Shown here one piece after another: positions 29,254-46,989 of a stretch of 64,000 nt of DNA. The DNA comes from an uncultured bacterium (GTDB lineage Bacteria; Eisenbacteria; RBG-16-71-46; JAFGJU01). The notes below the pieces were generated by a model. That model did no database searches and had not been told where the DNA came from. It was given only the letters and a program-made list of their open reading frames with translations. Made by a program: the position numbers and the translations under genes. The stretch is from assembly GCA_964570935.1 (NCBI GenBank), contig CAZMZP010000075.1:19173-83172 (forward strand), given 5' to 3'. Each line of letters starts with the position of its first letter. Position 1 is the stretch's first letter.

Positions 29254-29748
29254 TCAGTCGAGGGTGCTTATCGTGAGGTCGGGCCGCTCGAGCAGTTGGA
29301 ATTCTATTCCGACTTCCCCGAGCAGAGTGAGGGCGTCCTCGTCGGGATAACTCCCGCAGGCCACCACTCTCTCTATCTTGGCGTTGGCGAGGATCTTCGC
29401 GCACAGTATGCAGGGGGTGTGGGTGCAGTAGAGTGTGCCCTTCTGGATGCTGATTCCGTGAAGTCCGGCCTGTATGACGGCGTTCTGCTCAGCGTGGATC
29501 GCCCTGCAGACCTCGTGGCGCTCGCCGGACGCTATTCCTTTCGCGTCCCGGAGGCACCCGAGCTCCAGGCAGTCCTTCACTCCGGACGGGGCCCCGTTGT
29601 AGCCGGTCGTGAGGAGACGCTTCTCCTTCACTATCACGGCGCCGACGTGGTGACGCGTGCACGTCGAGCGTTCGGCCACGAGGAAGGCGATCTTCATGAA
29701 ATACTCGTCCCACGGGATTCTCGGGTGCCGCTGCCGGGGGGCGTTCAT
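29254..29748 (-). CDS. dCMP deaminase (ComEB-like)
   Basis: WDEYFMKIA...RSTC, TGYNG, HAEQNA, PCILCAK. Confidence 0.9.
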   Translation of the reverse strand: MNAPRQRHPRIPWDEYFMKIAFLVAERSTCTRHHVGAVIVKEKRLLTTGYNGAPSGVKDCLELGCLRDAKGIASGERHEVCRAIHAEQNAVIQAGLHGISIQKGTLYCTHTPCILCAKILANAKIERVVACGSYPDEDALTLLGEVGIEFQLLERPDLTISTLD

Positions 29749-31010
29749 CAGACCTCCTTTAGCTCGAGCTCGTGCTCGGGAAGGCGTGCGACGTCCGCGT
29801 GTCTGAAGAAGAGGTAGTACAGACAGCTTGCCACCACGTACAGCACTATCGCAACAACAAAAGACGGGACGTAGGAGTGACGCTCGATGAGAATGCCGCC
29901 CCACTGAACGCTCACGGCCCACGACGCGGTCCAGGCCAGCATCAGCATGCTGTTCGTGACGGCGTGCTCCTCCTTCCTGACCGACTCCATTGCGAAGTGG
30001 GTCGACAGCGGCTGGTTCATGTTCATCAGGGCGCCCCTCATCAGGAACGCGAACACCACGACGGGGAAGGACCTCGAGAAACAAAGGGCGAGCATGAACG
30101 GGATCGACGCGAGCTGCGTGACGACCACGCTTCTCATCAGCCCGAGCCTCGGCACGAACAGCGGCCCCAGGAGGGTGCCGGCGGTCATGAAGCACTGCAG
30201 GAGCGCGAACAATATGCCTATGGTCTCGGCCGACGCCCCGAAGAGGTCCCTGAAATAGAGGTTGAGGAACGGGATGATGAGGCCCGCGCCTATGCCGATT
30301 ATGAAGGCGGGCACGCACAGCTTCGCGATCAGCTTCCAGTCGGTCTTTCGAAGGTTTGCCAGGAACTGCGAGTGGGCTCTGACGTCCGGCCTCTCCTCCA
30401 CGATGGACATGAACGGAAGGGCGGAGAGAGTCATGACGATGACGCCGGCCAGGAGGGAATACCTGAACTGCTCCCCCGGCGACTGGGTGAAGTAGGAAAA
30501 CGCCCTGGGCAGGAAGCCGCCTATCAGACTCCCGACGAGCGCGCCCGCGGTGCTGACGGCGAAGTTCATGCTGAAAAGGTAAGTTCGCTCCTTCTCGCTG
30601 CTGTGCCGCATGAAGAACGGCGCGGACGCCACCCTGAACACCGCTATTCCGATTCCGGCGATGAACCCGGCCACCACTATCGCGTCCCTGTTGCCGGTGA
30701 GCACTTGGAGAGCGTAGCCGACCGCCATCACCAGCGTCGCAAACGTGAGGGCGGACCTGAAGGTGAACCGCCCGAGCAGAAGGCCCAGCGGAAGCGCCAG
30801 GATTACCGGGGCGAGGGACGTTCGGGACAGCACCTTTCCGATGTAGGATTCGGAGAAGCCCAATTCCTTGAAGTACAGGTTGAGGAGGAGCGAGAACATG
30901 GACGCGCCGGTCCATATGAGGAGACTGCCCAGAAGGAACGCTCTCGCGTTGGGAGGAAAAAGTCTCAGATGGGCGACGTAATCCCTGGTTCCTGCAAGGA
31001 GCTTGTTCAG
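29748..31010 (-). CDS. MFS transporter (start uncertain, possibly CTG)
   Basis: About 12 TM segments; LNLYFKELG, PFLNLYF; stop overlaps the deaminase ATG. Confidence 0.85.
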   Translation of the reverse strand: MNKLLAGTRDYVAHLRLFPPNARAFLLGSLLIWTGASMFSLLLNLYFKELGFSESYIGKVLSRTSLAPVILALPLGLLLGRFTFRSALTFATLVMAVGYALQVLTGNRDAIVVAGFIAGIGIAVFRVASAPFFMRHSSEKERTYLFSMNFAVSTAGALVGSLIGGFLPRAFSYFTQSPGEQFRYSLLAGVIVMTLSALPFMSIVEERPDVRAHSQFLANLRKTDWKLIAKLCVPAFIIGIGAGLIIPFLNLYFRDLFGASAETIGILFALLQCFMTAGTLLGPLFVPRLGLMRSVVVTQLASIPFMLALCFSRSFPVVVFAFLMRGALMNMNQPLSTHFAMESVRKEEHAVTNSMLMLAWTASWAVSVQWGGILIERHSYVPSFVVAIVLYVVASCLYYLFFRHADVARLPEHELELKEV

Positions 31011-31597
31011 TTCGTGTCTCTCTTCGCCACCACCGTGGCGTTGAAGCGTATCAGAGTCGCCACCCCCGTGACTGCCTGCGCGCTGCCGGAAGCGTCGAAT
31101 CTCATCCTTATGCCCACGCGGCATTCATCGGACGTAAGGAGCTCCCCTAGCTTCTCGTCTCCCCTCACGGTCACGTGGAGCGTGTCGGTGACTCCGGACG
31201 CCAGGTGGAGCAGCTCGGATTCGACGTACATGTCCGCGGGGATGTTGTCCGTATACGGCGCGGTCAGGGTGTCCGCCACGAACACCATGAACACGATGTC
31301 GGCGGAACCTGTCTGGTTCGCGAATTCAGAACTGATGTAGAGGTCCACGTACTCCACGTCGGCAAGGTCGGAAAGCCCCTCGGACAGGTTCAGTTCCTGC
31401 GGGTCCGAGTCTATGACCACCGGCAGCGGCGCCCCTGCCGGGATGGGCGGGTCGTCGCCGTACGTCTGCGTGACGGTCTCCGCGTCCATGAAGCTCAGCA
31501 CGTCCACGTTCATCGTCAGCGTACGGTCGCCGCAGCCCGGCGCGAGCAGGAGCGAGGAAAGCGAGACCGCGAGAATTGCCAGAGTTGTTCTTCTCAT
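31007..31597 (-). CDS. Hypothetical lipoprotein
   Basis: MRRTTLAILAVSLSSLLLAPGC lipobox; beta-rich mature part. Confidence 0.7.
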   Translation of the reverse strand: MRRTTLAILAVSLSSLLLAPGCGDRTLTMNVDVLSFMDAETVTQTYGDDPPIPAGAPLPVVIDSDPQELNLSEGLSDLADVEYVDLYISSEFANQTGSADIVFMVFVADTLTAPYTDNIPADMYVESELLHLASGVTDTLHVTVRGDEKLGELLTSDECRVGIRMRFDASGSAQAVTGVATLIRFNATVVAKRDTN

Positions 31598-31650
31598 TCT
31601 CTCCGCCTCTTCATTCGGATACCGGGAACTTCAACGGCCGAACGGCCGCC

Positions 31651-33006
31651 TCATAGTCTGAAAGACACCGCCAGGTCCACGGCCCGGTCGCCGGTCAGGA
31701 CGCTGCTGCTGGTAAAAAGCGCCAAGTCCATGCCGACCCTCCAGACATGGAAACCGGCGCCACCGGAGAACTGGAGCTTGCCGTTCGGGTCGAGCCACAT
31801 GCCGCTCCTGGCGGCTACGTTCCGCACGGGCATCTCGAACCCGGCGTGAAACACGGTTCGTGACAGGCCCTTTTCGATGTCAAAGGCCAGAGTCATGCCG
31901 GCCCACCTCTTCGCCGCGTTGAAAACCACTATGGCGGGCACCTTGCTCGTGTAGTCGAAGTTCTCCGCGATGGTATACGTCTCGACCTCGTCGGTCGAGT
32001 CGTCCATCGCCTGCAGTTCTCTGTCGGCCTCCCAGTGTATCTTGGTCATCACGTTCGTCACGCCCAGCCCGACCTCGTAGCCGGCCATGAACGCCGCCGC
32101 CCCCAAGTCCATTCCGGTCCCGTGCCCGGGCACGGCCGACTCGTCCGGCACCGACGTGGTCGACACGTTGGTGAAGTCCACGTCGAGCGGGTCGTCTCCG
32201 AATATGGTGTCGGGCGTAGTGAAGGACATCAGCGGCTTCGCGTTCGCGTAGGCGAATCCCATCAGGTACTTGAATCGCCCGCCGGCGTAGACGGCGAGGT
32301 CGTCCGAATGCCTGGGGTCCTTCCCGGAGTCAAGCAGCGCGTTGACCCGCCTGGCGTACCCGAAGCCGAGAGCCAGGGCGGCCTGGGCCTCGCCGCCCCC
32401 TTTCAGAAAATAGGCCGTGTTCGGCTCGAAATCCTGACCCCGGCGGAGCGCCCTCTCCAGCGTCGGACTCAGCTCGAGCTCGCCTTCCGCCACCACGAGC
32501 GGCGAAAGCCCCGCGAAGAAGCCCCGGACGGAAAAGCTCCCGGCCGGCTGGTCAAGGAGGCCGCCCAGCTCGAACGGCTCTTCCGGCACCACCTCCGCGA
32601 TGTCGCCAAGGTCGATCCTGAGCCTGTTTCTGGCCACGTCGATCACGACGTCGTCTTCGATGATGTCCGGGCTCTTTATTCTGAGGAAGACGGGGAAGTT
32701 GGTGGCCAGCTCCAAGATTTCAAGCGGGTTGAAGTCTTCGTCGTCCGGGTCCAGCTCCGGAGGGGAGGCCAGCACCTGGATTATGCCCAGCGGAAGCGGA
32801 ATGCTGCTTTTTAGAGCTCCCCGCGGCACGGCCTTGAACGCCACGTTCCTGTTCTGGGCCTCGGAGTAATCTGAGAGCACTACCCCTCCCATTCCGAGCC
32901 TCCTCGCATCGAACGAGCCCGCTTGGACGGCCCGGGCGCTGAACGACGCCGACACCAGGAGGGCCAGAAAGAAGGCGCGTGCGAGAACAATGGGGTCCCT
33001 GTTCAC
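31651..33006 (-). CDS. Outer-membrane beta-barrel-like protein (FadL/TraF/PorV-like N-terminus)
   Basis: GTG start with GGAGA; signal peptide; DARRLGMGG motif; alternating beta strands; ends VSFRL. Confidence 0.7.
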   Translation of the reverse strand: MNRDPIVLARAFFLALLVSASFSARAVQAGSFDARRLGMGGVVLSDYSEAQNRNVAFKAVPRGALKSSIPLPLGIIQVLASPPELDPDDEDFNPLEILELATNFPVFLRIKSPDIIEDDVVIDVARNRLRIDLGDIAEVVPEEPFELGGLLDQPAGSFSVRGFFAGLSPLVVAEGELELSPTLERALRRGQDFEPNTAYFLKGGGEAQAALALGFGYARRVNALLDSGKDPRHSDDLAVYAGGRFKYLMGFAYANAKPLMSFTTPDTIFGDDPLDVDFTNVSTTSVPDESAVPGHGTGMDLGAAAFMAGYEVGLGVTNVMTKIHWEADRELQAMDDSTDEVETYTIAENFDYTSKVPAIVVFNAAKRWAGMTLAFDIEKGLSRTVFHAGFEMPVRNVAARSGMWLDPNGKLQFSGGAGFHVWRVGMDLALFTSSSVLTGDRAVDLAVSFRL

Positions 33007-33073
33007 GTTCTCTCCGTTGGTGGTGTCACGGCCACTGCGCTGTGTCATTGCAAGTTGCGGGTTTCAGGCCGGG

Positions 33074-33103
33074 AAGCTAGCACACGGGCTGAGAAACGGT
33101 CAA
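33074..33103 (-). promoter_or_regulatory. Putative sigma70 promoter for the barrel-lipoprotein-MFS-deaminase unit
   Basis: Minus strand TTGACC-18 nt-TAGCTT with extended TG. Confidence 0.45.
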
Positions 33104-33111: not shown

Positions 33112-33146
33112 AAAAACCGGAGGGCCTCTTTTGGAAGCCCTCCGGT
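33112..33146 (-). terminator. Rho-independent terminator
   Basis: ACCGGAGGGC/GCCCTCCGGT stem followed by a T-run on the minus strand. Confidence 0.8.
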
Positions 33147-33239
33147 CGAGCGCAGGACTTGCTCTCGGATTATCCGGAGAAGGTCCTCACACAGCCGCCG
33201 CCCCGATCTTCCCTCCGCTCCAGACTCCGAGCGCTCTTA

Positions 33240-35177
33240 TCACTTCAGTATCACCATCTTCGTCTCTGCAACGTTGTCCTTCGTGAACAGCTTGCAGAAG
33301 TAGACGCCCGAAGAAACAGCGCGTCCCGCGTTGTTCCTTCCGTCCCAGGTGGCCTTGTGCTTGCCCTGGTCCATGACGCCCTGGTACAGAGTCTTCACGA
33401 GCCGGCCGGACACGTCGTAGACGCCCATGTCCACCTCGCCCTTCTCGGGCAGAGAGAACGTGATGGTCGTCACCGGGTTGAACGGGTTCGGGAAGTTCTG
33501 CTCCAGCGCGAACACTACCGGCGCCGCGGGCGTCACCGGGTCCACTCCGATCACGTTGACGAGGTCGATGTCCGCGTCCCTGCGGGGCTCGATTCTGAAG
33601 TCATCGTAGATGTAATCGATGGGACCGCAGATGTTCATCCACACGCCCGGAGTCGGTATGTACGTGTAGTTGCCGTTGTGGCCGACCATGGCCGTGTCGA
33701 GGGAGCCGTAGGTGTCGGCGACTTTCCACTCACCGAACTGGTCGAAGCCGACCGTGTCGGCCACGAAGACCGGGTCGCAGCGCACGAAGACGCCCTCGTA
33801 GGATTCGGCAGTCGCGGCGCCGGTCTTGATGAGCGCGGGGTCGACGTGCGCGGGTCCGGGCAGGGAGTTGCCTGAGCTGTGAACCGCGAGGTAGTCGAGT
33901 CCGGTGATCTCGGTCTTGTAGAAGTACTCGCTCACGTACCCCGACACGACTATGCTGTCACCTTCGGCAATCGGAGTGGGCGGACCACCGTAGATCTGAA
34001 CTCCGCTCCACGGGCCACCAGGACGCGTTTCCACGTAGAAGTGGGTGATGTACGGCCCGGTGTCGGCAGTAACGATTCCGGCAACGGTTACCTGCTGGGT
34101 CGTGAGCGCGGAGCTGTCGTTGTCCACGGCCTTCATCGCCTGCACCACCGAGATGGGCGTCAAGCCGCCCCTGAAGGCGTAGGTCTGCGGCTGCGGCATT
34201 ATCGTGCCGGGACCCTTGCTCTTCACCCCGGCTACGGTCAGTTCCTCGGCCGTTCCGCCGACCTGCGTTCCGGTCGTCAGGGTCACAATCTGCTCGCCCA
34301 CGAGGTCGAGGGTAGCCGACAGGACCTGCACCCCGGAACCTAGGTAGTAGTTGTTTATGTTCTCAGCCGTAGCTTCGTCTACTCTCACGTCAAACGCCGC
34401 GTTGATACCGGTGTTGGAAATGGCATAGGCTAGAGACAGGTTTGGCGCCGGCGGAGCGCCAGAGTAGACGATGTCATCAGCGTTCCTCGGACAGATGTGG
34501 TATCTGCTGTTCTCGTAGTGGCCGATACCAGCTATAGACGTCAGCACTGTGCCGATAGGCGGCGGGGCGGGCCCGGGGCTCACCATCTTGTTGGTCCTGC
34601 AGTACATGGTCGTCGTATCGGTCGAAGGGGCATTCTGCCTGAACCAGAAGCTCGTCAGAGGATACGCTGGGTCGATGCCCGTGACTACCACGTCCTGGAA
34701 CCTGATGAGAGTGCCTTCCCACTGCTCCGCAGTTGCGTAAGCGTACGGCCGCATACCGAACTGATTGCACTGTAGCAGCTTTGGCGCCGGCACGATCATG
34801 CTGTCCACTATCGTCCAGGCGAGCGGGCTGTAGATCAGCTCCGAGCCCGACAGCGAGTCGTGGACTCCGGAGGGATACTCCAGGTACCTGATGGAGTCTA
34901 TCGTCACCACGTGACCCACCCTCAGGCCGCCTGTAGACGTGCTGCCCGTGTAGACCTGGATACCACCGTACGGACCACCGGACTTCTGCTGCGCCCAGTA
35001 GCCGTAAGTGCTCACGTAGTCGATGCCGGTTACCACAACCGTGTCGACCCTGACGATAGTGTTCTGCGGATACACAAGCTGCTGAATCTCGTATATCGTC
35101 GCCAGGGTCGCTGCCGACGCCACGCCCGCGGTGACAAACAGCAGCGCAACGACCATTGCTAGAACTCGTCTTTCCAT
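33240..35177 (-). CDS. Secreted protein with repeated OB-fold-like modules, Ig-like segment and C-terminal FlgD-Ig/CTD
   Basis: AGAAGGAGG RBS; signal peptide ending ASA; TIYEIQ and TPISVVQ...VTVAGIVTA modules; QNFPNPFNP...YDVSGRLV...SSGVYF tail. Confidence 0.82.
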   Translation of the reverse strand: MERRVLAMVVALLFVTAGVASAATLATIYEIQQLVYPQNTIVRVDTVVVTGIDYVSTYGYWAQQKSGGPYGGIQVYTGSTSTGGLRVGHVVTIDSIRYLEYPSGVHDSLSGSELIYSPLAWTIVDSMIVPAPKLLQCNQFGMRPYAYATAEQWEGTLIRFQDVVVTGIDPAYPLTSFWFRQNAPSTDTTTMYCRTNKMVSPGPAPPPIGTVLTSIAGIGHYENSRYHICPRNADDIVYSGAPPAPNLSLAYAISNTGINAAFDVRVDEATAENINNYYLGSGVQVLSATLDLVGEQIVTLTTGTQVGGTAEELTVAGVKSKGPGTIMPQPQTYAFRGGLTPISVVQAMKAVDNDSSALTTQQVTVAGIVTADTGPYITHFYVETRPGGPWSGVQIYGGPPTPIAEGDSIVVSGYVSEYFYKTEITGLDYLAVHSSGNSLPGPAHVDPALIKTGAATAESYEGVFVRCDPVFVADTVGFDQFGEWKVADTYGSLDTAMVGHNGNYTYIPTPGVWMNICGPIDYIYDDFRIEPRRDADIDLVNVIGVDPVTPAAPVVFALEQNFPNPFNPVTTITFSLPEKGEVDMGVYDVSGRLVKTLYQGVMDQGKHKATWDGRNNAGRAVSSGVYFCKLFTKDNVAETKMVILK

Positions 35178-35395: not shown

Positions 35396-35424
35396 ATTAT
35401 AACCTAAAACCGGGCAAATGTCAA
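35396..35424 (-). promoter_or_regulatory. Perfect-consensus sigma70 promoter
   Basis: Minus strand TTGACA-17 nt-TATAAT; palindrome AATTAGC-N3-GCTAATT at 35382-35398 overlaps the -10. Confidence 0.85.
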
Positions 35425-35531: not shown

Positions 35532-36173
35532 CTACTTGATGCCGTGGAGCCGCTTGTACTCCGGCCAATTCCTCTTTAACTCTATGAAATCAGGCAGGTT
35601 GGCCCGTAGGAGGAAGGGGTTGGTGAGTTTCTCTTCGCCCATGGTGGAGCGCGGCCGGACTCCGTAATCGTGGCCGGGCCAGACTTCGGTCGAATCGGGC
35701 AGGGGCATGAGCTTCCGGTGGAGGCTCTCGTACTCTCGTCGCGCGCCGTCTCCGAAGTCGGTGCCCCCGACCTTCCCGACGAACAGCGTGTCGCCGGTCA
35801 GCAGCTTCCCGTTGACCAGAACACAGATGGAGTCGAGTGTGTGCCCGGGGGTGTGGATGATGCCGGCGCGCAGCCGGCCGGCCTCGAGCTCTGTCCCGTC
35901 TTCCACCGCGATGTCGTGCGCGGCGTTCGAAGAACTGTGCGCCACGATGAGCGCGCCAGTTTCTCTCTTGACGGCGGCGTTGCCCGCGATGTGGTCGGCG
36001 TGCGAGTGTGTGTTTACGATGTACTTCACATTGACGCCGAGCGACCGCACCCGCGCGATGAGGTGGTCACAGTCGAAAGACGGGTCGACCACGAACCCGA
36101 CGCGCGCCTCTTCGTCGGCCGCAATGTAAGCGAAGTTCCTGTCGCCGCCGGAATCTATCTGCTCGAAGATCAC
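35532..36173 (-). CDS. MBL-fold hydrolase (glyoxalase II-like)
   Basis: THSHADH, HTPGHT, TGDTLF, PGHDY; GTGA overlap with PNP. Confidence 0.88.
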   Translation of the reverse strand: MIFEQIDSGGDRNFAYIAADEEARVGFVVDPSFDCDHLIARVRSLGVNVKYIVNTHSHADHIAGNAAVKRETGALIVAHSSSNAAHDIAVEDGTELEAGRLRAGIIHTPGHTLDSICVLVNGKLLTGDTLFVGKVGGTDFGDGARREYESLHRKLMPLPDSTEVWPGHDYGVRPRSTMGEEKLTNPFLLRANLPDFIELKRNWPEYKRLHGIK

Positions 36174-37009
36174 TTCTTTCCTATCTCCCTCACAAGTTCT
36201 TTGAAGAACGGGACCAGGCGCGTGACCGTCTTCCCGACGACCTCGGCCACTTCCTCGTGGCTCAGCTCGGCGTTTCCGATGCCTGTCGCCAGGTTAGATA
36301 TGCAGGAGAGCCCCAGCACGCGCAGACCCAGAGTGTTCGCAACGAGCACCTCGTGCGCCGTGGACATGCAAGCTGAATGAGCGCCGATCCTCCGCATGAA
36401 TTCGGATTCGGCTCCGGTCTCGTAGCTGGGTCCGGTAGAACTGCAGAGCACGCCCTGTTTCAGCGCGACGCCGTACCTTTCGGCCGCGCGCCTGGCCACG
36501 TCCATGTATACGCGGTCGTACAGAGCGGGGCATCTCCTTGCCAGGGGCTCCGTCTTCCAGCCGCACTCTCCCCTGAGTGGCTGGCGAAACGTCAGGTCTA
36601 TGTGGTCCTGCACGAGCATCACGTCGCCGGGTCCGATGTCGCGCGTGAACGAACCGCTGGCGTTGGTCACTATCAGGGAGTGAACCCCGAGCGCGGCCAG
36701 CACTCTGACCGGGAACGTGACGTCGGCCGGAGAATGACCCTCGTAAAGATGAACACGGCCCTGGAGTATGGCGACGTGAGTCTCCGCGAAGCGCCCCAGC
36801 ACGAGAAAGCCCTGGTGGCCGTGAACCGTGGGCGGCTTGAAGTGCGGGATGGTCGAATACGGGATGGCGCAGCCTCTGTCGACTTCGGCAACGAGCGGCC
36901 CGAAGCCGGACCCCAGGATGATTCCCAAGGAAGGGACAGCCGGGCATTCTCCACGGACCCGCCTCACCGCGTCTTTTACCATCTGGTCTCTTTCGTCCCA
37001 GTTCGTCAT
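36170..37009 (-). CDS. punA: Purine nucleoside phosphorylase (trimeric family)
   Basis: IILGSG, GRVHLYEGH, TNASG, GPSYET, MSTAHE, SNLATG. Confidence 0.9.
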   Translation of the reverse strand: MTNWDERDQMVKDAVRRVRGECPAVPSLGIILGSGFGPLVAEVDRGCAIPYSTIPHFKPPTVHGHQGFLVLGRFAETHVAILQGRVHLYEGHSPADVTFPVRVLAALGVHSLIVTNASGSFTRDIGPGDVMLVQDHIDLTFRQPLRGECGWKTEPLARRCPALYDRVYMDVARRAAERYGVALKQGVLCSSTGPSYETGAESEFMRRIGAHSACMSTAHEVLVANTLGLRVLGLSCISNLATGIGNAELSHEEVAEVVGKTVTRLVPFFKELVREIGKK

Positions 37010-39187: not shown

Positions 39188-40747
39188 TCACGCAGTCGGC
39201 CGGCCGGCGCCGGTCATCAGGAGTCCCAGTTCCTTCTCGTCGGTCGCGGCCGCATCGACTGTGCTCACGACCCTGCCGCCGAACACGACGGCTATTCTGT
39301 CGCTCAGGCTCAGGATCTCGGACAGGTCCGCGGACACGAGCAGCACGGCCGTGCCGGCGTCTCTCTGCGAGACGAGACAGCGCCTGATGAACTCTATGGC
39401 CCCGATGTCCACGCCCCTGGTGGGCTGGGCCGCCACCAGCAGTACCGGCTTGCGGCCCAGCTCGCGGGCCACGACCAGCTTCTGCTGGTTGCCTCCGGAC
39501 AGCGCGCCGGCCCTCAGGAAGGGAGCCCGCGGCCTGACGTCGAACTCCCGGAGGGCCCACTCCGCGTTCGCCAGGACGGCGTTCGAGTCCAGAAACACCC
39601 GGCCGGCGTAAGGCGGCCTGAACTGAGAGCCCAGGATCAGGTTCTCACCCACGGTGAACTCCGTTATGAGCCCCCGCTTCAGACGGTCCTCCGGAATGTG
39701 CGCCACCCCGCGTTCGAGCATCTGTCTGGGAGACGAACCTGTGACGTCGTGGCCCCCGAGCAGGACTCTGCCGGAGGCCGGTTTCCTGAGCCCGGCGATC
39801 ACCTCCACGAGCTCCGTCTGGCCGTTCCCCTCGACTCCAGCCACTCCCAGGATCTCGCCGGCGTGGACGCTCAAGGAAAGGCCCTTCAGTCTGGGCACCC
39901 TGCCTGCGCCCAGCGCGTGAACGTCTATGAGCTCCAGCACCGCTCCGCCCGGCGCGGCAGGACCCTTGTCCACGTCGAACAAGACTCTTCTTCCCACCAT
40001 CATCATGGCCAGCTCCGCGGGCGACGAGTCCCGCGTGTCGACCATGCCCACGACCCTGCCGTGGCGCATAACGGTCACTCTGTCGGAGATCTCCATGACT
40101 TCGTTCAGCTTGTGCGTGATGAAGACGATGGTCTTTCCCTGCTCCCTCATCTTCCGCAGTATGATGAAGAGGGCGTCGGTCTCCTGGGGCGTGAGAACGG
40201 CCGTGGGTTCGTCAAGTATGAGGAGCTCCGCGCCCCTGAAGAGTATTTTCAGTATCTCTACGCGCTGCTGCGCTCCCACGGACAGTTTCTCGACCTGCGC
40301 CAGCGGGTCCACGGACAACGCGAACAGCCGGGAAAGTTCGTCTATTCTCCGGGACGCGGACTTGAGATCCAGGAACACGCCGGACCGCGAAGGCTCGGAG
40401 CCGAGGACGACGTTCTCGGCCACCGACAACTGCGGGATCAGCATGAAATGCTGGTGCACCATCCCGACGCCAAGCGAAATCGCGTCCGCCGGGGTCCTGA
40501 TATCGGTCCTCATCCCGTCGAAGGAAATGCGGCCGGAATCGGGCCTGTACAACCCGTACAGTATGCGCATGAGAGTGGACTTGCCCGCGCCGTTTTCACC
40601 CACCAGCGCGTGGATCTCGCCCTTCCGCACGTCGAGGCTCACGCAGTCGTTGGCCTTGACGAGGGCGAAGCGCTTGGATATGCCCTCCATTTGAAGGAAG
40701 GTCGGGGAACGGGGCGAAGCGGGGGTGTCACGTGGAGGGAACAACAA
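39188..40747 (-). CDS. Two-domain ABC ATPase (NupA/YufO-like)
   Basis: GENGAGKST, LDEPTA, LSGGNQQK, QPTRGVD; exact start uncertain. Confidence 0.92.
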   Translation of the reverse strand: MLFPPRDTPASPRSPTFLQMEGISKRFALVKANDCVSLDVRKGEIHALVGENGAGKSTLMRILYGLYRPDSGRISFDGMRTDIRTPADAISLGVGMVHQHFMLIPQLSVAENVVLGSEPSRSGVFLDLKSASRRIDELSRLFALSVDPLAQVEKLSVGAQQRVEILKILFRGAELLILDEPTAVLTPQETDALFIILRKMREQGKTIVFITHKLNEVMEISDRVTVMRHGRVVGMVDTRDSSPAELAMMMVGRRVLFDVDKGPAAPGGAVLELIDVHALGAGRVPRLKGLSLSVHAGEILGVAGVEGNGQTELVEVIAGLRKPASGRVLLGGHDVTGSSPRQMLERGVAHIPEDRLKRGLITEFTVGENLILGSQFRPPYAGRVFLDSNAVLANAEWALREFDVRPRAPFLRAGALSGGNQQKLVVARELGRKPVLLVAAQPTRGVDIGAIEFIRRCLVSQRDAGTAVLLVSADLSEILSLSDRIAVVFGGRVVSTVDAAATDEKELGLLMTGAGRPTA

Positions 40748-41804
40748 TCTCTCCGGAAACTATTTTTTGCTTGAGCGTCTCGACCCTGGCGCGTATGTCT
40801 TCGCCGATCAGTGCCTTGTTGTTGTCGTCGTACACGTAGCTGATCCCGCCCTCCTTGAGACCGAGCGCCCTCACCCCGCCCTCGAACGTGTTGTTCATCG
40901 CGGACTTTATGGTCTCCAGGACCGCGACGTCCACGTCCTTGATCATGCTCGTGAGGATGTAGCCCGGCGCCTCGGCGTACTGGTCGGAATCCACGCCTAT
41001 GGCCAGCTTGCCTTTTTCCCTGGCCGCCTCGAAGACGCCCAGACCCGTCGAGCCGGATGCGTGAAATATCACGTCCGCGCCCTTGGAGTACTGCGTCAGC
41101 GCCAGCTCTTTACCCTTGCTGGGGTTCTTGAACGCGTTGTCCGTGACGCCGGCGTAAGACACGAACACTTTCACGTCGGGCCGGACGTACGTCGCGCCGG
41201 CGATGTAGCCCGCCTCGAACTTCTTGATGAGGGGGATCTTCATGCCACCCACGAAACCTATCTTGCCCGTCTTGCTCTTCAGCGCCGCCACGGCGCCCAC
41301 CAGGAAGGAGCCCTCTTCCTCTCTGAACTTGAGAGCGACCAGGTTGGCCGGGATGCTGTCGGCGTCCGTGACCGTGTAATCCACGCACGCGAACTTCTTG
41401 TCTGGAAACTCCTTCGCGGTCTGCGTTATGTCGTCGGTGAACAGGAAGCCGATTCCGAAGATGACCCGCGCGTCTCCGTTGGCCATCAGACGGAGCGCGG
41501 AGGCCCTGTCGCTTCCTTCGCCCGGCTCGATGTACTCGAAGTCCACTCCCAGCTCTTCCTTGGACCTCACGAGTCCCCTGTAGGCGGAGTCGTTGAAAGA
41601 CTTGTCGCCCCTGCCGCCGACGTCGAACACCAGCCCGACCTTGAAAGCTGCGTTCGCGGCGCCCGAGTCCGTCTCGTCCGTCCCGCTCTTTTCCTTCTTC
41701 GCGCAGGACAATGCGCAGACCGTCAGAAAAAGCGCAAGGCAGAGCATCGCTGTCACGAAGAAACCGGCTGAGTGCTTTCGGCGCGCGGCGTGAAGCGTTC
41801 TCAT
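40728..41804 (-). CDS. BMP-family nucleoside-binding lipoprotein (PnrA/TmpC-like)
   Basis: GGAGG RBS; lipobox ALSC; GDKSFNDSA, GADVIFHASG, AIGVDSDQ. Confidence 0.9.
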   Translation of the reverse strand: MRTLHAARRKHSAGFFVTAMLCLALFLTVCALSCAKKEKSGTDETDSGAANAAFKVGLVFDVGGRGDKSFNDSAYRGLVRSKEELGVDFEYIEPGEGSDRASALRLMANGDARVIFGIGFLFTDDITQTAKEFPDKKFACVDYTVTDADSIPANLVALKFREEEGSFLVGAVAALKSKTGKIGFVGGMKIPLIKKFEAGYIAGATYVRPDVKVFVSYAGVTDNAFKNPSKGKELALTQYSKGADVIFHASGSTGLGVFEAAREKGKLAIGVDSDQYAEAPGYILTSMIKDVDVAVLETIKSAMNNTFEGGVRALGLKEGGISYVYDDNNKALIGEDIRARVETLKQKIVSGEIVVPST

Positions 41805-41842: not shown

Positions 41843-42526
41843 TCATTTCCGGCCGGACCTTCCGGCGCCTGGCTTCCCGGTCCCGGGTTTCCTGCCGGCG
41901 GGCTTCTTCGGGACTGTATTCTTTCCGCCGGACTTCTTCGCGTCGGACGGGGCCGGCCGTTCTTTCCCGGGCGGCTCGAAGCAGTGACGGCACCTGGCCT
42001 CGTACAGGTCGGCGGCGCCGACCACTATTCTCTCCTTGCTCGGGACCTTGCGTTGGGTCCTGTTCGCCGGGTTGCCGCAGACAACGCAGATGGCCAGCGT
42101 CTTGGTGATGTACTCCGCCACGGCCAGCAGCTGCGGCATGGGCTCGAAGGGCTTTCCGGTGTAGTCCTGGTCCAGCCCCGCCACTATCACTCTCTTGCCG
42201 CTGTCGGCCAGCTTCTGGCACACGCCTATGAGGTCGGCGCCGAAGAACTGCGCCTCGTCGATTCCGACGGCGTCCGCGTCCATGGCCCTCTTGAGTATTT
42301 CGCCGCAGTCGGAAACCTCCTGCGAGGGTATCCGCTGGAGATTGTGGGATACGATGTGGTCGCTGCCGTATCTCCGGTCTATCCGCGGCTTGAAAATGGA
42401 GACTTTCTGCCTGGCGATCTGCGCCCTCCTCAGCCTCCTGATGAGCTCCTCGGTCTTCCCGCTGAACATGCTTCCACAGATGACCTCGATCCAGCCGGTG
42501 TTCTTCTGCGGGATGTTCTCAGTCAT
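41843..42526 (-). CDS. tdk: Thymidine kinase
   Basis: [37 protein letters not shown]; basic tail. Confidence 0.95.
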
Positions 42527-42594: not shown

Positions 42595-43209
42595 TCACAG
42601 CAGCGAGCGGATCTTGGTCTTTAAGAGATCGATGGCGACTACGTTATGTCCGCCCTGCGGGATTATGATGTCGGCGTATCTCTTGGACGGCTCCACGAAC
42701 TGCAGGTGCATCGGACGCACGCTGCTCTCGTACTGCTCGATTATGGACTCGATACCGCGGCCCCTCTCCCTCAAGTCCCGCTTGAGCCTCCTGATGAACC
42801 TCTCGTCCGCGTCCGTGTCTATGAACACCTTTATGTCCATCAGGGTCCGCAGTTCGACGTCGTCCAGGATGAGGATGCCCTCCAGCACGATGACGAGATG
42901 CGCCCCGATCCTCCTGGTCTCCCCGCTCCTGCGATGCTGGGTGAAATCGTAGATCGGCTGTTCGATCTGCCGGCCGTGGATGAGCTTCAGGATGTGCTCC
43001 CTGAGGAGGGGCATGTCGAACGCGTCGGGATGGTCGAAGTTCTGCCTGCAGCGCTCCTCGTACGGCAGGTGGCACATGTCGTTGTAGTAGGAGTCCTGCT
43101 TGATTATGACGACCTTGTCCGACCCCAGCTCGGAGTAGATGGTGTCGGCCACGAGGGTCTTGCCCGAACCCGACCCGCCCGCTATCCCGATGACGATGGC
43201 CTTGCTCAT
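42595..43209 (-). CDS. udk: Uridine kinase
   Basis: GGSGSGKT, NFDHPDAFD, EGIL, RDLRERGR, FVEPSKRYADIIIP. Confidence 0.95.
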   Translation of the reverse strand: MSKAIVIGIAGGSGSGKTLVADTIYSELGSDKVVIIKQDSYYNDMCHLPYEERCRQNFDHPDAFDMPLLREHILKLIHGRQIEQPIYDFTQHRRSGETRRIGAHLVIVLEGILILDDVELRTLMDIKVFIDTDADERFIRRLKRDLRERGRGIESIIEQYESSVRPMHLQFVEPSKRYADIIIPQGGHNVVAIDLLKTKIRSLL

Positions 43210-43221
43210 TCCTTCGACCTT

Positions 43222-43524
43222 TCAGTCACGCGGCCCCGGCCTGGCGCCGTCCGTCTCCGGCAGGTCCACGCTGTCGACGACGCCAACGATGACGGTTCTG
43301 ACGGGTCCCCTCTGCATCTTGAGGATCTGGGACGCGGCGTTTCCCTCGTCCGACACCAGCACCATGTCCCCGCCGCCGGCGCCCACGCTGTCCACTGCGA
43401 TCACGGGTTTGCCGCTGGGGGAGAGGGACAAGTCTAGCGGGCGGACCAGGAGGAGCTTCTTTCCGCGGAGGTCTCTATGCTTTACTGTGGCGGCTATCTT
43501 CCCCACAACTCGTGCAAGGAACAT
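43222..43524 (-). CDS. EutN/CcmL family microcompartment vertex (BMC-P) protein
   Basis: MFLARVVGKIAATVKH, KLLLV, AVDSVGAGGGD.VL, VIVGVVD. Confidence 0.9.
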   Translation of the reverse strand: MFLARVVGKIAATVKHRDLRGKKLLLVRPLDLSLSPSGKPVIAVDSVGAGGGDMVLVSDEGNAASQILKMQRGPVRTVIVGVVDSVDLPETDGARPGPRD

Positions 43525-44182
43525 TTTCACAACCTGCCAGCGTGCCGGACATCTCGCAATCGTGTGACTTGACGAGCCCCACGATCTCGTCGATCTTGTG
43601 CGCGTGCTCGATGAAATTCACGGTGTCGGTGTCGACCTCGTGGACTCGCGTCATCCTGCGCGCCCTCCCAAGCCATTCTTCGTAAGCGTCGTCGAGCGTT
43701 TTCAGATAGTCGAGCGTTATTGACTTCTCACTCTCCCGGCCCCTGTGCTTTATCCTGTCCATCAGGCTCACGGGTTCGGCGCGCAGGTAGATTATGAGGT
43801 CGGGCGGCCTGATGAACTCGAGCATCGTGTCGAACAGCGCCTTGTAGTTGGCGTAGTCTCTGTCGCACATGTGGCCGAGGCGGTTGAGCGTTCTGGCGAA
43901 GACTTCGGCGTCCTCGTAGATGGTCCTGTCCTGGATGAAGGAGACGCCGGATTCCAGCATCTTCTTCTGGGCCTGGAATCTCTTCGAAAGGAAGAAGATC
44001 TGGAGATGGAAGCTCCATCTGTTCATGTCCTTGTAGAAATCGTCCAGGTAGGGGTTGTCGATCACGGGCTCGTAATACGCCTGCCAGCCGGTCCGCCTGT
44101 TAAGCTCTCTCGTCAGGCAAGTCTTTCCGGCTCCGATGTTGCCGGCGATCCCGAGAAAAAAGCTCTTGTGTTCCACGGCCAT
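43475..44182 (-). CDS. Deoxynucleoside kinase (dCK/dGK family)
   Basis: GNIGAGKT, EPVIDNPYL, QIFFLSKR, DRTIYED, RGRESE. Confidence 0.92.
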   Translation of the reverse strand: MAVEHKSFFLGIAGNIGAGKTCLTRELNRRTGWQAYYEPVIDNPYLDDFYKDMNRWSFHLQIFFLSKRFQAQKKMLESGVSFIQDRTIYEDAEVFARTLNRLGHMCDRDYANYKALFDTMLEFIRPPDLIIYLRAEPVSLMDRIKHRGRESEKSITLDYLKTLDDAYEEWLGRARRMTRVHEVDTDTVNFIEHAHKIDEIVGLVKSHDCEMSGTLAGCENVPCTSCGEDSRHSKA

Positions 44183-44187
44183 GGTCC

Positions 44188-44757
44188 TCAGGGCACTCCG
44201 ATCTCCGACTCTTCCAGAGTGGCCACGTAGGGGAGGTTTCTGTACTTCTGGGCCAGGTCAAGCCCGTACCCGATGACGAACTTGTTCGGAATCACAAAAC
44301 CCACGTAATCAATCGCTATGTCGACCTCCCTCCTTTCGCGCTTGTCAAGAAGCGCGCATATCCTGAGCGAACGCGGGAGCCTGGCGAGGAGCATTCTCTT
44401 TATGTAGGACAGGGTAAGGCCGCTGTCCACGATGTCCTCTATGATGATGACGTCCTCGTTGCTGATGTCTCTCTCCAGGTCTTTGAGCAGCCGCACGACG
44501 CCGGAGCTCCTGGTGAGGTTGTTGTAGCTCGACACGGACATGAAGTCGATTTCGGGGTTGATGGTGAGATGCCTAACCAGGTCGGACAGAAACAGAAAAC
44601 TGCCTCTCAGGATTCCTATGAGGATGGGGGATTGACCGGGGTAGTCGCGGGAGATCTCGAGGCCAAGCTCCTTCACGCGTTTCTGTATTTGTTCTTCTGT
44701 GAGCAGGACTTCCATTGATTGCCCCGGGACCGCCGCCTGTCGCAGAGTGGATCGCAT
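44188..44757 (-). CDS. hpt: Hypoxanthine phosphoribosyltransferase
   Basis: GILRGSFLF, IIEDIVDSGLTL, FVIGYGLD, YRNLP; start could be 44757 or 44715. Confidence 0.93.
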   Translation of the reverse strand: MRSTLRQAAVPGQSMEVLLTEEQIQKRVKELGLEISRDYPGQSPILIGILRGSFLFLSDLVRHLTINPEIDFMSVSSYNNLTRSSGVVRLLKDLERDISNEDVIIIEDIVDSGLTLSYIKRMLLARLPRSLRICALLDKRERREVDIAIDYVGFVIPNKFVIGYGLDLAQKYRNLPYVATLEESEIGVP

Positions 44758-44783
44758 TACTTTGTTCCGCAACAGTGGATCGC

Positions 44784-44812
44784 TTGACCGTTTCCCGCAG
44801 CTTATGTATAGT
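44784..44812 (+). promoter_or_regulatory. sigma70 promoter of the deaminase-rpiB unit
   Basis: TTGACC-17 nt-TATAGT. Confidence 0.7.
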
Positions 44813-44877
44813 TCTATCTTACTTCACTGGTGACAAGCGGCGAACGGCTCTCTTGGCCGCTCAAAAAGCTGTGGTGG

Positions 44878-44906
44878 AGTCTAGCGCGAACGGATTCGGG
44901 TGTCAA
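44878..44906 (-). promoter_or_regulatory. sigma70 promoter of the hpt salvage operon
   Basis: Minus strand TTGACA-17 nt-TAGACT. Confidence 0.7.
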
Positions 44907-45013
44907 CTCTTAACTCTGGTTGGCGCTTCCGGATTCGGGGCGCTCCGCGGGCGGACGCACGCACGCTTCAGTGGGGTCACCCGCGGTCTCACGCCGCGTT
45001 GCAGGAGGTCAGG

Positions 45014-46375
45014 TTGGACGCAACTCTGTTGACGGGCGGCACCGTCATAACCATGAACGCTTCCAGGGAAGTGTTGCGGGCCGACGTGATGATAGAGGGC
45101 GGCGTCATCACCGCCGTCGGGCAGAACCCGGGTGGTTGGGCGCGGCGCGCTGCCGGACATTCCTGGCTTCGGACGCTGGACGTCGGCGGCAGCTACGTCC
45201 TTCCCGGCTTCATCCAGACTCACGTGCATCTTTGTCAGACGCTGTTCAGGGGCCAGGCCGAGGGAGTCGGACTCGCCGGCTGGCTGGACAGGATATGGAC
45301 TCTCGAAGCCGCTCACGACCCCGAGTCCATGCGCGCCTCCGCCGCGCTGGGCTGTAACGAGCTGTTGAAGGGCGGAACCACGTGCGTCCTCGACATGGGA
45401 AGCGTTCACCACACCGACCAGGTGTTCGAGGCCGCACGGGCGAGCGGCATAAGGGCCTTCTGCGGCAAGGCCATGATGGACGCCGGTGACCACGTGCCTC
45501 CCGGGCTCAGAGAGACCACCGACGAATCCATGTCTGAGGCGCTGCGGCTTCACGGGAGGTGGCACGGCGCCGACGGCGGCAGAATTCAGTACGCGTTCGC
45601 GCCGCGGTTCCTGGAAAGCTGCAGCGAAGACCTGCTGCGCGGGGTGGCCGCGAGCGCTCGCGAGATGGTCCTCCTCGTGCATTCTCACGCCTCCGAGACC
45701 GCCGCCGAGCTGGAGGACTGTAAGTCCCGGCACGGCGTGAGCCCCGTCAAATACCTCGAATCACTCGGGCTGGCCGGTCCGAACCTCGTGCTGGCCCACT
45801 GCATACATCTGGAGGACGACGACTTCAGAATCCTGGCCGAGACCGGTACGAAGGTGGCTCACTGCCCGTCCTGCAACCTCAAGCTTTCCTCCGGGATAGC
45901 GGACGTCGACCGTCTCGCGCGGTCCGGCGCGGCAGTGTCGCTGGGCAGCGACGGCGCCGCCTGCAACAACAACCTCGACATGTTCCAGGAGATGAGGACT
46001 GCCGCGCTCCTGCAGAGCTACAAGAATGGAGGCGGGCACCCGTGGGCAGGGCTGTTCCTGGAGGCGGCGACCCTGGGAGGGGCGAAGGCGCTGGGCATAG
46101 ACGGCATAGTGGGCAGCATCGAACCGGGGAAGAAGGCCGACCTGATTGTGGTAAACGTCTCGGGAGAGCACGCGCTCTGCGGCCCCGGCTGCGACCCCGC
46201 CACGAGGATCGTATTCTCGGCAAAGAGCTCCGACGTGAAGCACGTCTTCGTAGGCGGCCGCCCGATTGTCGCGGCCGGCGAGATCTGGCAGGGTCCGTAC
46301 GCGGGTCCGTCCTCGCGCGAAGTGACGGTCAACGCTTCGAGGGCGCTCGAGAAGCTGCTCGCGCGCTGCGCCTGA
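45014..46375 (+). CDS. Amidohydrolase, MTA/SAH/5'-deoxyadenosine deaminase family
   Basis: AGGAGG before TTG 45014; HVHLCQTLFRG, HSHASE, AHC, HCPSCNLKL, LGSDG. Confidence 0.85.
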   Translation: MDATLLTGGTVITMNASREVLRADVMIEGGVITAVGQNPGGWARRAAGHSWLRTLDVGGSYVLPGFIQTHVHLCQTLFRGQAEGVGLAGWLDRIWTLEAAHDPESMRASAALGCNELLKGGTTCVLDMGSVHHTDQVFEAARASGIRAFCGKAMMDAGDHVPPGLRETTDESMSEALRLHGRWHGADGGRIQYAFAPRFLESCSEDLLRGVAASAREMVLLVHSHASETAAELEDCKSRHGVSPVKYLESLGLAGPNLVLAHCIHLEDDDFRILAETGTKVAHCPSCNLKLSSGIADVDRLARSGAAVSLGSDGAACNNNLDMFQEMRTAALLQSYKNGGGHPWAGLFLEAATLGGAKALGIDGIVGSIEPGKKADLIVVNVSGEHALCGPGCDPATRIVFSAKSSDVKHVFVGGRPIVAAGEIWQGPYAGPSSREVTVNASRALEKLLARCA

Positions 46376-46401
46376 AACTGGCGACGGCATGAGGTGAAGG
46401 C

Positions 46402-46989
46402 ATGGAACGTCAGAAGATCACTCCGGAGAGAATAAGGAAAGTAGTGCGTGAAGTCCTCGAGGAGACGACCCGCGAAGGCCCCGTGGGCGCGACTCGCGTC
46501 CCGGCAGGTGCGCCTGCCGGTCCCAAGGCAAAGGCGCCTGGCGCCGTTGCGCTGGCCGTGGGCGCCGACCACGGCGGATTTGCCTTCAAGGAGCTCTTGA
46601 GGAAATACCTCGAGCAGGAACTGGGGATTGTGGTCAAGGACTGCGGCACTCACGGGCCGGAGTCGGTCGACTATCCCGACTTCGCCCTTGCCGTGGCCAG
46701 GGCCGTGGCGTCGGGCGAATGTGAGAAGGGCATCGTCGTAGACACCATGGGGATCGGGTCCTCCATAGCCGCCAACAAGGTCAAAGGAATCCGTGCCGCG
46801 CTCTGCCACGACGTGGACACCGCAAGGAACAGCCGGGCGCACAACGACGCCAACGTGCTGGCCTTGGGCTCCAAGGTGGTCAACTCCGGTCACGCCCGGC
46901 GGATAGTCAGGGAATGGCTGGCCACTGCTTTTGAGGGCGGCAGGCACGCCAAGAGAGTTCAGAAGATAACAGACGCCGAACGCGCGTGA
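46402..46989 (+). CDS. rpiB: Ribose-5-phosphate isomerase B-like protein with N-terminal extension
   Basis: GADHGG, DYPDFA, GIG..IAANKVKGIRAA, HNDANVL, FEGGRHAKRV. Confidence 0.9.
   Translation: MERQKITPERIRKVVREVLEETTREGPVGATRVPAGAPAGPKAKAPGAVALAVGADHGGFAFKELLRKYLEQELGIVVKDCGTHGPESVDYPDFALAVARAVASGECEKGIVVDTMGIGSSIAANKVKGIRAALCHDVDTARNSRAHNDANVLALGSKVVNSGHARRIVREWLATAFEGGRHAKRVQKITDAERA

Follow-up and report, generated by a model that had tools for sequence, protein, structure and literature searches.

Two microcompartment parts embedded in a conserved nucleoside uptake and salvage locus of Eisenbacteria

Introduction

Among the bacterial microcompartments (BMCs), those of the sugar-phosphate-utilising (SPU) type have been proposed to be linked to the breakdown of DNA (Axen 2014; Sutter 2021, PMC8217296; Dwyer, Sutter & Kerfeld 2024, PMC11585597). 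All SPU ribose-5-phosphate isomerases (RPIs), which belong to the RpiB family, carry a Cys66->Asp exchange (E. coli numbering) and a typical encapsulation peptide (EP) with an N-terminal amphipathic helix; the one that has been assayed showed negligible ribose-5-phosphate isomerase activity and formed a ~1:1 complex with the SPU aldolase DERA (PMC11585597). Another type, the metabolosome with incomplete core 7 (MIC7), is represented in Supplementary Data 2 of the BMC catalogue by six loci, from Latescibacteria and Eisenbacteria only, with a triplet of BMC-P pentamers and a BMC-Tdp satellite, and its aldehyde dehydrogenase (AldDh) is nearest to that of SPU3 (PMC8217296). Here we describe a locus in which two parts of such compartments, a vertex protein and an RPI, are embedded among conserved genes for nucleoside import, salvage and phosphorolysis. 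It lies within a 64,000-nucleotide stretch of an uncultured member of the Eisenbacteria (assembly GCA_964570935.1, contig CAZMZP010000075.1, positions 19,173 to 83,172), which we call the window and whose coordinates are used throughout.

The locus shares with SPU compartments an RpiB-family RPI bearing both the Cys66->Asp exchange and an EP, a triplet-type BMC-P, a proposed tie to the products of DNA degradation and, in the main shell loci of its relatives, an AldDh nearest to SPU3. It departs from them in that the RPI gene stands behind a nucleoside deaminase in an uptake locus and not beside DERA or shell genes, in that position 68 of the RPI is Met and not Ala, and in that searches around both satellite and main loci revealed no DERA. 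The ties to MIC7 are the same taxa, the same BMC-P clade, an RPI helix resembling the EP of the AldDh, and one genome, DG_63, with both kinds of locus; the catalogued MIC7, in contrast, comes without mention of an RPI, of a BMC-P in a nucleoside operon or of any substrate. Described BMC satellites, among them ccmK3/K4 and that of HO type I with its aldolase and two BMC-P, also differ from the window, where the shell gene is translationally embedded among transport and salvage genes whose products are not BMC components.

The uptake side has its own relatives. Nucleoside ABC importers of the Bmp/PnrA family include PnrA of T. pallidum, NupNOPQ of B. subtilis and BmpA-NupABC of L. lactis. The importer of the window has the same parts, namely a PF02608 lipoprotein, one two-domain ATPase and two BPD_transp_2 permeases, but it is set among four salvage enzymes, a purine nucleoside phosphorylase (PNP) and BMC parts, and its substrate is a prediction. 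The classical deo/nup operons, such as deoCABD of E. coli and dra-nupC-pdp of B. subtilis, likewise put a phosphorylase and a nucleoside transporter under common control; unlike them, the window locus is without DeoC and DeoB, includes kinases and Hpt, and is linked to a protein organelle. Extracellular nucleases of the ExeM/NucH kind share with the secreted protein of the locus an N-terminal OB-fold-like module and secretion to the surface, whereas that protein has two binding modules and a type IX secretion system (T9SS) tail in place of an endonuclease/exonuclease/phosphatase (EEP) domain. The SPU-type microcompartments of Hodarchaeales, finally, have also prompted the idea that such a compartment is coupled to the capture and use of exogenous DNA, in their case through a DNA-binding pentamer tail and a complete SPU operon (preprint, PMC12747264), while the coupling in the window is one of gene linkage to nucleoside import and salvage.

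Reading frames in the window (G+C ~62%) were picked by third-position G+C (GC3) and genes were named with Pfam and NCBIfam profiles; the rest of the 64 kb was annotated with profiles as well, supplemented by tblastn with MIC7 shell proteins and an SPU DERA. The satellite-type loci compared come from CP070702.1 (L001, a single contig of 2.69 Mb), DG_63 (L002/L003), Zod_Metabat.294, GCA_026388185.1 and two JGI contigs. Operon-type loci carry the labels L001, L002/L003, L005, L088 and L089, with L008 partial, and MIC7 main loci the labels L004, L006, L007, L090 and L091.

An SPU-type isomerase homologue with an encapsulation peptide

The RpiB-family protein (195 aa; 46402-46989, plus strand) starts with an extension that reads MERQKITPERIRKVVREVLEE and continues into a Pro/Ala/Gly-rich stretch. 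Residues ~6-22 correspond to the encapsulation-peptide helix ITPERIRKVVREVLEE, residues ~23-50 to the Pro/Ala/Gly linker, and the RpiB domain (pfam02502) runs from residue 51. An AlphaFold prediction made without an alignment, of low confidence (pLDDT 38) and read for secondary structure only, places a helix at residues 8-24, and the hydrophobic moment of the helix is 0.6-0.84, with 0.84 for the window protein. The helix is kept in the window, L001, L002, L008 and L089, with a linker that differs in length and sequence; in two of these four relatives it is reached only from GTG starts that public gene calls have overlooked. Its motif ERIxxVVxEVLE matches the EP of the MIC7 AldDh, which has the consensus MALDExRIASIVSEVLERLE followed by a Gly/Pro linker, the pattern common to both being ERI..(I/V)V.EVLE. 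A short hidden Markov model of the AldDh EP, run over six frames, was powerless: the RPI peptide itself was not recovered.

The active site tells a similar story. Where solved RpiBs have C-G-T-G, the window protein has D-T-M-G-I-G-S-S (GIVVDTMGIGSS aligned with GIVICGTGLGIS), with Asp at the Cys65/66 position and with His99 and the Asn kept. We compared 75 RpiB loci from metagenomes and genomes, which share ancestry, so that P values are merely indicative: an EP-like extension is found in 35 loci with and 3 without shell or DERA neighbours, and no extension in 11 with and 26 without. All 46 RpiBs in a BMC context carry Asp at the catalytic Cys position, together with Ala or Met at the Thr position, while among RpiBs without such a context Cys occurs in 25 of the 26 non-Asp sequences. 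Because both published hallmarks are present, the Cys66->Asp exchange and the N-terminal helix with its variable linker, the window protein is assigned from its sequence as an SPU-type RPI, a microcompartment core protein and not a housekeeping isomerase. The original prediction had joined the locus to microcompartments through a vertex protein and RpiB, and this assignment makes that link firmer than it had proposed (PMC11585597). It had also foreseen a disposal of sugar phosphates; that RpiB would do this as a cytosolic enzyme is unlikely, because the SPU RPI that was tested lacked appreciable isomerase activity (PMC11585597).

The closest RPIs from outside the Eisenbacteria sit in loci of the order RPI(EP)-DERA(EP)-BMC-H-P-AldDh-T-P-P. 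The adjacency to, or fusion with, DERA that would be expected of an SPU RPI was not found in the window, L001, L002, L008 and L089, where a gene for a TonB receptor follows. A second kind of N-terminal extension, distinct from the short amphipathic peptide, was seen on ten microcompartment-linked RPIs (L009, L010, L014, L018, L022, L024, L028, L032, L034 and L068). It is a domain of ~60 aa with the motif (I/L)(V/I)TE.D(V/I)......G..(L/F).(V/I)P.GA(L/I)(V/I)TPLARQ.A.ER.V.

A predicted vertex protein that starts inside a kinase gene

The second microcompartment part is a BMC-P protein of 100 aa (43222-43524, minus strand), which matches PF03319 over profile positions 1-83 of 83 (1.3e-25). It resembles the solved vertex proteins EutN (2HD3, 7.7e-14), HO-shell (Haliangium) BMC-P (5V74) and CcmL (2QW7), and is predicted to be a pentameric shell-vertex protein. 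Translation begins at an ATG within dNK, the gene for a deoxynucleoside kinase (43475-44182, minus; PF01712, 3.7e-54), so that the start of BMC-P and the 3' end of dNK overlap by 50 nt, and an identical 50-nt overlap occurs in 6/6 loci compared. The last 16 codons of dNK are thus the other frame of the BMC-P start, which is conserved as MFLARVVGKIAAT. Since this start lies within dNK, BMC-P cannot be expressed apart from the salvage operon. The variable, Cys-rich tail that the overlap gives to dNK had been considered as a 'zinc knuckle'; this was ruled out, as its cysteines lack conservation and it simply represents the alternative frame of the BMC-P start.

With a dN/dS of 0.03-0.15, a range equal to that of udk and dNK, BMC-P is functional in the sense that it is under purifying selection. 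Compared with the pentamers of MIC7 loci it is 60-68% identical to the third BMC-P, 43-46% to the first and 34-36% to the second, and in a neighbour-joining tree the operon BMC-Ps form one clade within the MIC7 third-pentamer clade. On this evidence the operon protein would be an additional, fourth paralogue, or else the triplet's third pentamer moved to a new place. Its C-terminal tails of ~10 residues (43225-43260 in the window, and orthologues) vary, some being rich in Lys and Arg (GKTRSGKRRS in L002, KAQSGKRK in L088); basic tails on archaeal pentamers are reported to bind DNA (preprint, PMC12747264).

Conservation of the gene order

The core order, with RPI and the amidohydrolase gene on one strand and hpt-dNK-BMC-P-udk-tdk-Bmp-ABC-permease-permease-PNP-MBL-T9SS protein on the other (MBL denoting a metallo-beta-lactamase-fold protein), was found in at least six other contigs of Eisenbacteria or 'Latescibacteria DG_63' (L001, L002/L003, L005, L088 and L089, and partly L008). 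The closest BMC-P relatives, among the matches listed, belong to Candidatus Eisenbacteria/Eiseniibacteriota and to 'Latescibacteria bacterium DG_63': matches of at least 73% identity have the operon context, and the next tier, at 69% or below, leads to canonical shell loci. A BMC-P scan of genome contigs returned at least three loci. In all loci examined the RPI gene is co-directional with the nucleoside deaminase and lies 26 nt 3' of it. Because synonymous sites are saturated between the operon loci, the order must have been kept by selection, and the recurrence of the cluster in independent contigs is far beyond chance.

All genes named by the original prediction are present, in the order and on the strands it gave, as judged by Pfam and NCBIfam. 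It had set the limits of the region at 29254-46989; on the right the conserved block continues past 46989 to ~54.2 kb. Here follow a TonB-dependent outer-membrane receptor (47023-50025, plus; start uncertain, 47035 or 47110), an outer-membrane protein of the PorV/PorQ family (50053-51117, plus; NF033709, 164.9 bits against a cut-off of 90), an NHL-repeat protein (51188-52186, plus) and a protein of 651 aa whose C-terminal tail is of the T9SS type (52242-54197, plus). The receptor adjoins RPI in the window and in L001, L002, L008 and L089, with PorV-like and NHL genes further out; the NHL-repeat and the 651-aa proteins are also found in L002 and L089. A sequence search of the PDB gave no match for the 651-aa protein or for a 487-aa one. 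The left end of the region, from the outer-membrane barrel to the dCMP deaminase, lies beyond the stretches compared in the relatives, and is separated from the secreted-protein gene by an intrinsic terminator with a 14-bp stem (33115-33147, minus).

In CP070702.1 the right arm appears to be truncated or rearranged: at L001 4002-6289 the TonB receptor is called at only 510 aa, and behind it come a PGM/PMM fragment of 218 aa and the genes prfA, coaE and polA. This PGM/PMM-type enzyme could be a candidate for a phosphopentomutase.

Transcription signals

Between the two divergent gene sets, at 44784-44906, two conserved sigma-70-like promoters stand face to face, each within the 5' untranslated region of the other, with a predicted antisense overlap of ~50 nt. 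The predicted promoter of the hpt-dNK-BMC-P operon, TTGACA-17-TAGACT (44878-44906, minus), has both hexamers invariant in 7 aligned sequences from 6 independent loci. The opposing promoter-like element, TTGACC-17-TATAGT (44784-44812, plus), points toward the amidohydrolase-RPI operon; two blocks that are invariant in the alignment, GGTCAAGC and ACTATACA, correspond to its hexamers. In this way the operon of deaminase, RPI and receptor and that of the salvage genes could interfere with each other's expression. A riboswitch in the conserved hpt leader was ruled out, with no Rfam match even at E = 10 and a weak consensus fold (-6 kcal/mol); the invariant leader blocks are the hexamers of the opposing promoter. 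A further invariant block, ACGGCC..GAGAGCC at ~44838-44851 (minus), lies between the predicted transcription starts, is explained by neither promoter and may be an operator; the neighbouring block CTATACATAAG is duplicated in L088. One environmental metatranscriptome has contigs that cover hpt, dNK and the junction of dNK with BMC-P at 97-99% identity, for which DNA carry-over is a possible source.

Uptake, salvage and a secreted protein

The salvage operon on the minus strand opens with hpt (44188-44715), a hypoxanthine(-guanine) phosphoribosyltransferase gene (HGPRTase, 214 bits against a cut-off of 150). It continues past dNK and BMC-P with the uridine kinase gene udk (42595-43209; PF00485, 2.4e-41) and the thymidine kinase gene tdk (41843-42526; PF00265, 5.5e-53). 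Next comes the importer, with a Bmp/PnrA-type substrate-binding lipoprotein (40728-41804; PF02608, lipobox ALSC), an ABC ATPase with two ATP-binding domains in tandem (39188-40690; Pfam) and two PF02653 permeases (37975-39096 and 37048-37962; Pfam). This is the architecture of the Bmp/PnrA nucleoside type, from which the importer is predicted to carry nucleosides. The PNP (36170-37009, minus) is of the PunA/PNP-I type (NF006054, 279.5 bits against a cut-off of 218) and would accordingly be an inosine/guanosine enzyme. On the plus strand, the amidohydrolase (45014-46375) belongs to the DadD/MtaD family of 5'-deoxyadenosine/adenosine-type deaminases (NF005557, 499.7 bits, below the cut-off of 522); its likely start is the TTG at 45014, which has AGGAGG ahead of it. 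A deaminase of this family would supply the PNP from adenosine-type nucleosides.

The MBL-fold gene (35532-36173, minus) overlaps the PNP gene by 4 nt and is present in all related loci. Its product is closest to persulfide dioxygenases of the ETHE1 type (4YSB, 2e-35) / glyoxalase II and not to an enzyme of nucleic acids, and there is no ready explanation for a sulfur enzyme in such an operon.

The secreted protein (33240-35177, minus; 645 aa from MERRV) is preceded by a perfect sigma-70 consensus promoter, TTGACA-17-TATAAT (35396-35424, minus). It consists of two homologous OB-fold-like modules of ~200 aa each and a T9SS type A sorting domain (TIGR04183, 35.7 bits against a cut-off of 23), and its second module aligns with the N-terminal region of ExeM/NucH nucleases, at positions 2-130 of the 546 in the profile. 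Searches of Pfam, NCBIfam and the PDB found no catalytic (EEP) domain in it, and an AlphaFold model made without an alignment was unusable (pLDDT 32.8). It has 1882 relatives among 1.84 billion representatives. Of 40 larger ones, 8 carry a PF01336 OB-fold, 13 an LTD domain, 10 an EEP nuclease and 2 a PLD nuclease domain. The original prediction of an OB-fold protein is borne out in this respect, and since related modules match the OB-fold and are fused to extracellular nuclease domains in other proteins, it is a fair reading that the protein binds nucleic acid at the cell surface.

Further left on the minus strand lie a putative outer-membrane barrel (31651-33048; only a weak match to DUF5723), a putative lipoprotein (31007-31597; no family, a lipobox-like signal), a transporter of the major facilitator superfamily (29748-31124) and a dCMP deaminase (29254-29748), the last two named from Pfam and NCBIfam. 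The stop of the transporter gene and the start of the deaminase gene share one base (29746-29750), with AAGGAGG upstream of the deaminase start, which suggests that the two are translationally coupled.

Where the shell may be encoded

In Sutter 2021 a satellite consists of one or more shell genes, accompanied by enzymes or not, distal from a locus that has BMC-H as well as BMC-P. BMC-P is the sole shell gene found in the 64 kb by profile annotation and by tblastn with MIC7 shell proteins, and no PF00936 was found there. MIC7-type main loci could be read in relatives, namely in L004, L006 (an Eisenbacteria metagenome-assembled genome, MAG), L007, L090 and L091, with the order BMC-H, BMC-H, BMC-P, AldDh with an N-terminal EP, BMC-Ts, BMC-P, BMC-P. 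None is present in the window, so that satellite status with respect to a main locus of this kind is the most it can have. The two kinds of locus meet in DG_63. It is listed in the catalogue with a MIC7 main locus (AMJ46_09200 and AMJ46_09215; PMC8217296), and its operon BMC-P is AMJ46_05350, so that one MAG bears both. The original prediction had named as fatal the lack of BMC hexamer or deoC genes in the genome together with a gene order that is not kept; the order is conserved, and BMC-P, BMC-T and AldDh occur in the MIC7 main locus of DG_63, a relative with the same operon. Contigs of four metagenomes that bear the window, searched with the MIC7 main locus, gave many fragments from many organisms, none of them attributable.

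In L004, L090 and L091 the main locus lies upstream of the genes for HU, RNase R and a PilZ protein and of aroA, cmk, plsC and rpsA, a neighbourhood that is a useful anchor for locating MIC7 in other genomes. A peptide ABC transporter of the SBP_bac_5 type precedes the main locus in L004 and L091. The alignment of the L006 AldDh falls into two pieces, suggesting a frameshift. With tblastn, an SPU DERA found nothing in the window or in L001-L008 (satellites L001-L003, L005 and L008; main loci L004, L006 and L007), and PF01791 is absent from the gene tables of L088-L091.

A proposed pathway and its alternatives

Taken together, the locus probably serves the acquisition and recycling of nucleosides and is at the same time a satellite of the MIC7 microcompartment of its lineage, which is related to the SPU type. 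Both BMC-P and the RPI would serve a MIC7 shell encoded elsewhere, MIC7 would in effect be an SPU-type compartment with its type-specific parts dispersed, and expression in response to nucleosides would tie the organelle to pentoses derived from nucleic acids. In such a pathway the T9SS-anchored tandem OB-fold protein would bind extracellular nucleic acid, whose breakdown products would pass the outer membrane, with the TonB-dependent receptor as the candidate route, and the ABC importer with its Bmp lipoprotein would take in the nucleosides. Bases and nucleosides would be turned into nucleotides by Hpt, dNK, Udk and Tdk, and the adenosine-type deaminase and PNP would split surplus purine nucleosides into the base and (deoxy)ribose-1-phosphate. 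The face-to-face promoters would co-express the salvage genes with the vertex protein and with the RPI, as cargo or as a core-organising protein, and both would join the shell (BMC-H, BMC-H, BMC-P, AldDh-EP, BMC-Ts, BMC-P...) made from another locus, inside which an aldehyde derived from deoxyribose would be oxidised to acetyl-CoA. The conversion of (deoxy)ribose-1-phosphate to the aldehyde needs an aldolase (DERA) and a phosphopentomutase; both are assumed to be encoded elsewhere and have so far not been found in the loci searched.

Several observations weigh against this picture. Most cytoplasmic enzymes of the locus are anabolic and not catabolic, among them the four salvage enzymes Hpt, dNK, Udk and Tdk. 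A search for a nuclease, nucleotidase, DeoB or DeoC, which covered the window and 10 kb around each of five satellite loci and five main loci of MIC7, found none, and no phosphopentomutase was identified in the locus. The 64-kb window itself holds no BMC-H or BMC-T, AldDh, DeoC (DERA) or DeoB detectable with profiles and tblastn, and neither DERA nor RPI occurs within 10 kb of the five MIC7 main loci. The sole SPU RPI that has been assayed is catalytically inert on ribose-5-phosphate (PMC11585597). The coexistence of operon and shell locus in one genome is documented by a single binned MAG, DG_63, and a table in the literature. In CP070702.1 no shell protein or second P3-like BMC-P was seen among the 120 matches listed of thousands, which is uninformative either way. 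Of the continuous feeding pathway once predicted, from surface capture to sugar-phosphate disposal, what stands is the physical and conserved union of an uptake and salvage cluster with BMC genes, as seen in synteny, in the EP and Asp of the RPI and in BMC-P; the steps that would call for a nuclease, nucleotidase, DeoB or DeoC are the part without a match.

The anabolic nature of the four enzymes and the failure to find DERA and DeoB in the window would also suit a plain nucleotide-salvage operon, in which BMC-P and RPI hitch-hike after the break-up of an SPU-type locus and serve a microcompartment with a substrate unrelated to nucleosides. BMC loci are indeed often split into satellites (PMC8217296), and the genes for RPI and BMC-P belong to separate operons on opposite strands. 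We nevertheless consider this unlikely. The start of BMC-P within dNK binds it to the salvage operon, the RPI gene keeps its place 26 nt behind the deaminase throughout the loci examined, and the arrangement has outlived the saturation of synonymous sites; moreover, SPU-type enzymes have independently been predicted to process the deoxyribose of DNA (PMC8217296, PMC11585597). Harder still to accept is that BMC-P and RPI are orphan parts which, after loss of the shell in some genomes with the operon, have taken on a task independent of microcompartments, such as that of a pentameric scaffold for the kinases. No shell gene of CP070702.1 appeared among the matches listed, to which these negatives are confined, and the tested SPU RPI is enzymatically inert (PMC11585597), but the encapsulation helix is kept in CP070702.1 (L001), where it is sensible only with a shell or core to bind, and DG_63 has a shell locus. 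This makes the orphan explanation highly improbable.

Two further possibilities concern what the parts do within a microcompartment. The BMC-P of the operon may be the third member of the MIC7 triplet itself, moved out and now an obligatory shell part whose expression nucleosides would govern. Such a move would be one form of the satellite reading and not an alternative to it, and it is plausible, although we lean against it. Its nesting in the MIC7 third-pentamer clade argues for it, as does a pattern limited to the 120 matches listed, in which contigs of 2-3.6 Mb have this BMC-P in the operon (CP070702.1) or in the main locus (P0034, P0036) and none has it in both places. The catalogue, on the other side, gives a BMC-P triplet for MIC7 in general. 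A bolder thought, and a quite unlikely one, is that nucleoside supply would programme the organelle: BMC-P made in a fixed ratio with dNK by way of the 50-nt overlap, and the RPI with its Asp/Met site made from the opposing promoter, would switch a generic MIC7 chassis of shell and AldDh to the processing of nucleosides and pentose phosphates. This could involve chemistry other than that of DERA, or salvage kinases docked at the vertices.

Other genes of the window

Outside the conserved block, the window contains several groups that were recorded in passing. Directly left of the dCMP deaminase, at 25349-29191, lie genes for a radical SAM enzyme, a DUF362 protein and a fusion of Memo and AMMECR1. 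Memo, AMMECR1 and a radical SAM enzyme make up the 'AmmeMemoRadiSam' trio, the function of which is unknown; two members of the trio are fused in the window. The region 17705-25385 comprises a multihaem cytochrome c (17705-18580), ResB/CcsA genes for cytochrome c biogenesis (18549-20859), a fusion of cytochrome c7 and cytochrome b561 (21043-22698) and also an 896-aa protein with a spermidine-synthase domain. Elsewhere a GAF-SpoIIE phosphatase stands beside a Ser/Thr kinase with TPR repeats (2686-6427), a TldD/PmbA metallopeptidase pair occupies 10836-13754, and the window end cuts a gene for a DNA polymerase of family X (62389-63999), in which HHH_8, pol-beta thumb and PHP domains were recognised. 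A phosphoglycerate-mutase-like gene at 56875-58086 was considered as DeoB and ruled out, as it is ApgM well above the cut-off of that family.

Implications

Earlier publications cover SPU compartments, their RPIs with EP and Asp substitution (PMC11585597) and the occurrence of MIC7 in Eisenbacteria (PMC8217296). In the literature searched we found neither an SPU-type RPI and a BMC-P placed outside a shell locus within a nucleoside-uptake operon nor a substrate hypothesis of this kind for MIC7, and nothing specific on Eisenbacteria microcompartments or on CP070702. The SPU study makes no mention of nucleosides, phosphorylases, satellites or MIC7 (PMC11585597).

Few bacterial organelles are as widespread as the SPU-type microcompartments, and the role proposed for them in the use of DNA deoxyribose rests on two enzymes only. 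The locus described here provides independent genomic support for a link between nucleic-acid detritus and SPU compartments. It also shows that surveys which collect genes only near shell loci overlook satellites that are functionally telling, and it offers a natural pair of encapsulation peptide and shell that could be used in engineering. If nucleoside supply were to programme the organelle as set out above, MIC7 would be the first microcompartment with a substrate specificity wholly supplied by a transport operon. The arrangement is conserved over a long evolutionary distance in a phylum that is common in soils, sediments and groundwater, and MIC7, previously without a proposed substrate, gains with it a concrete and testable substrate hypothesis, namely nutrients derived from nucleic acids.

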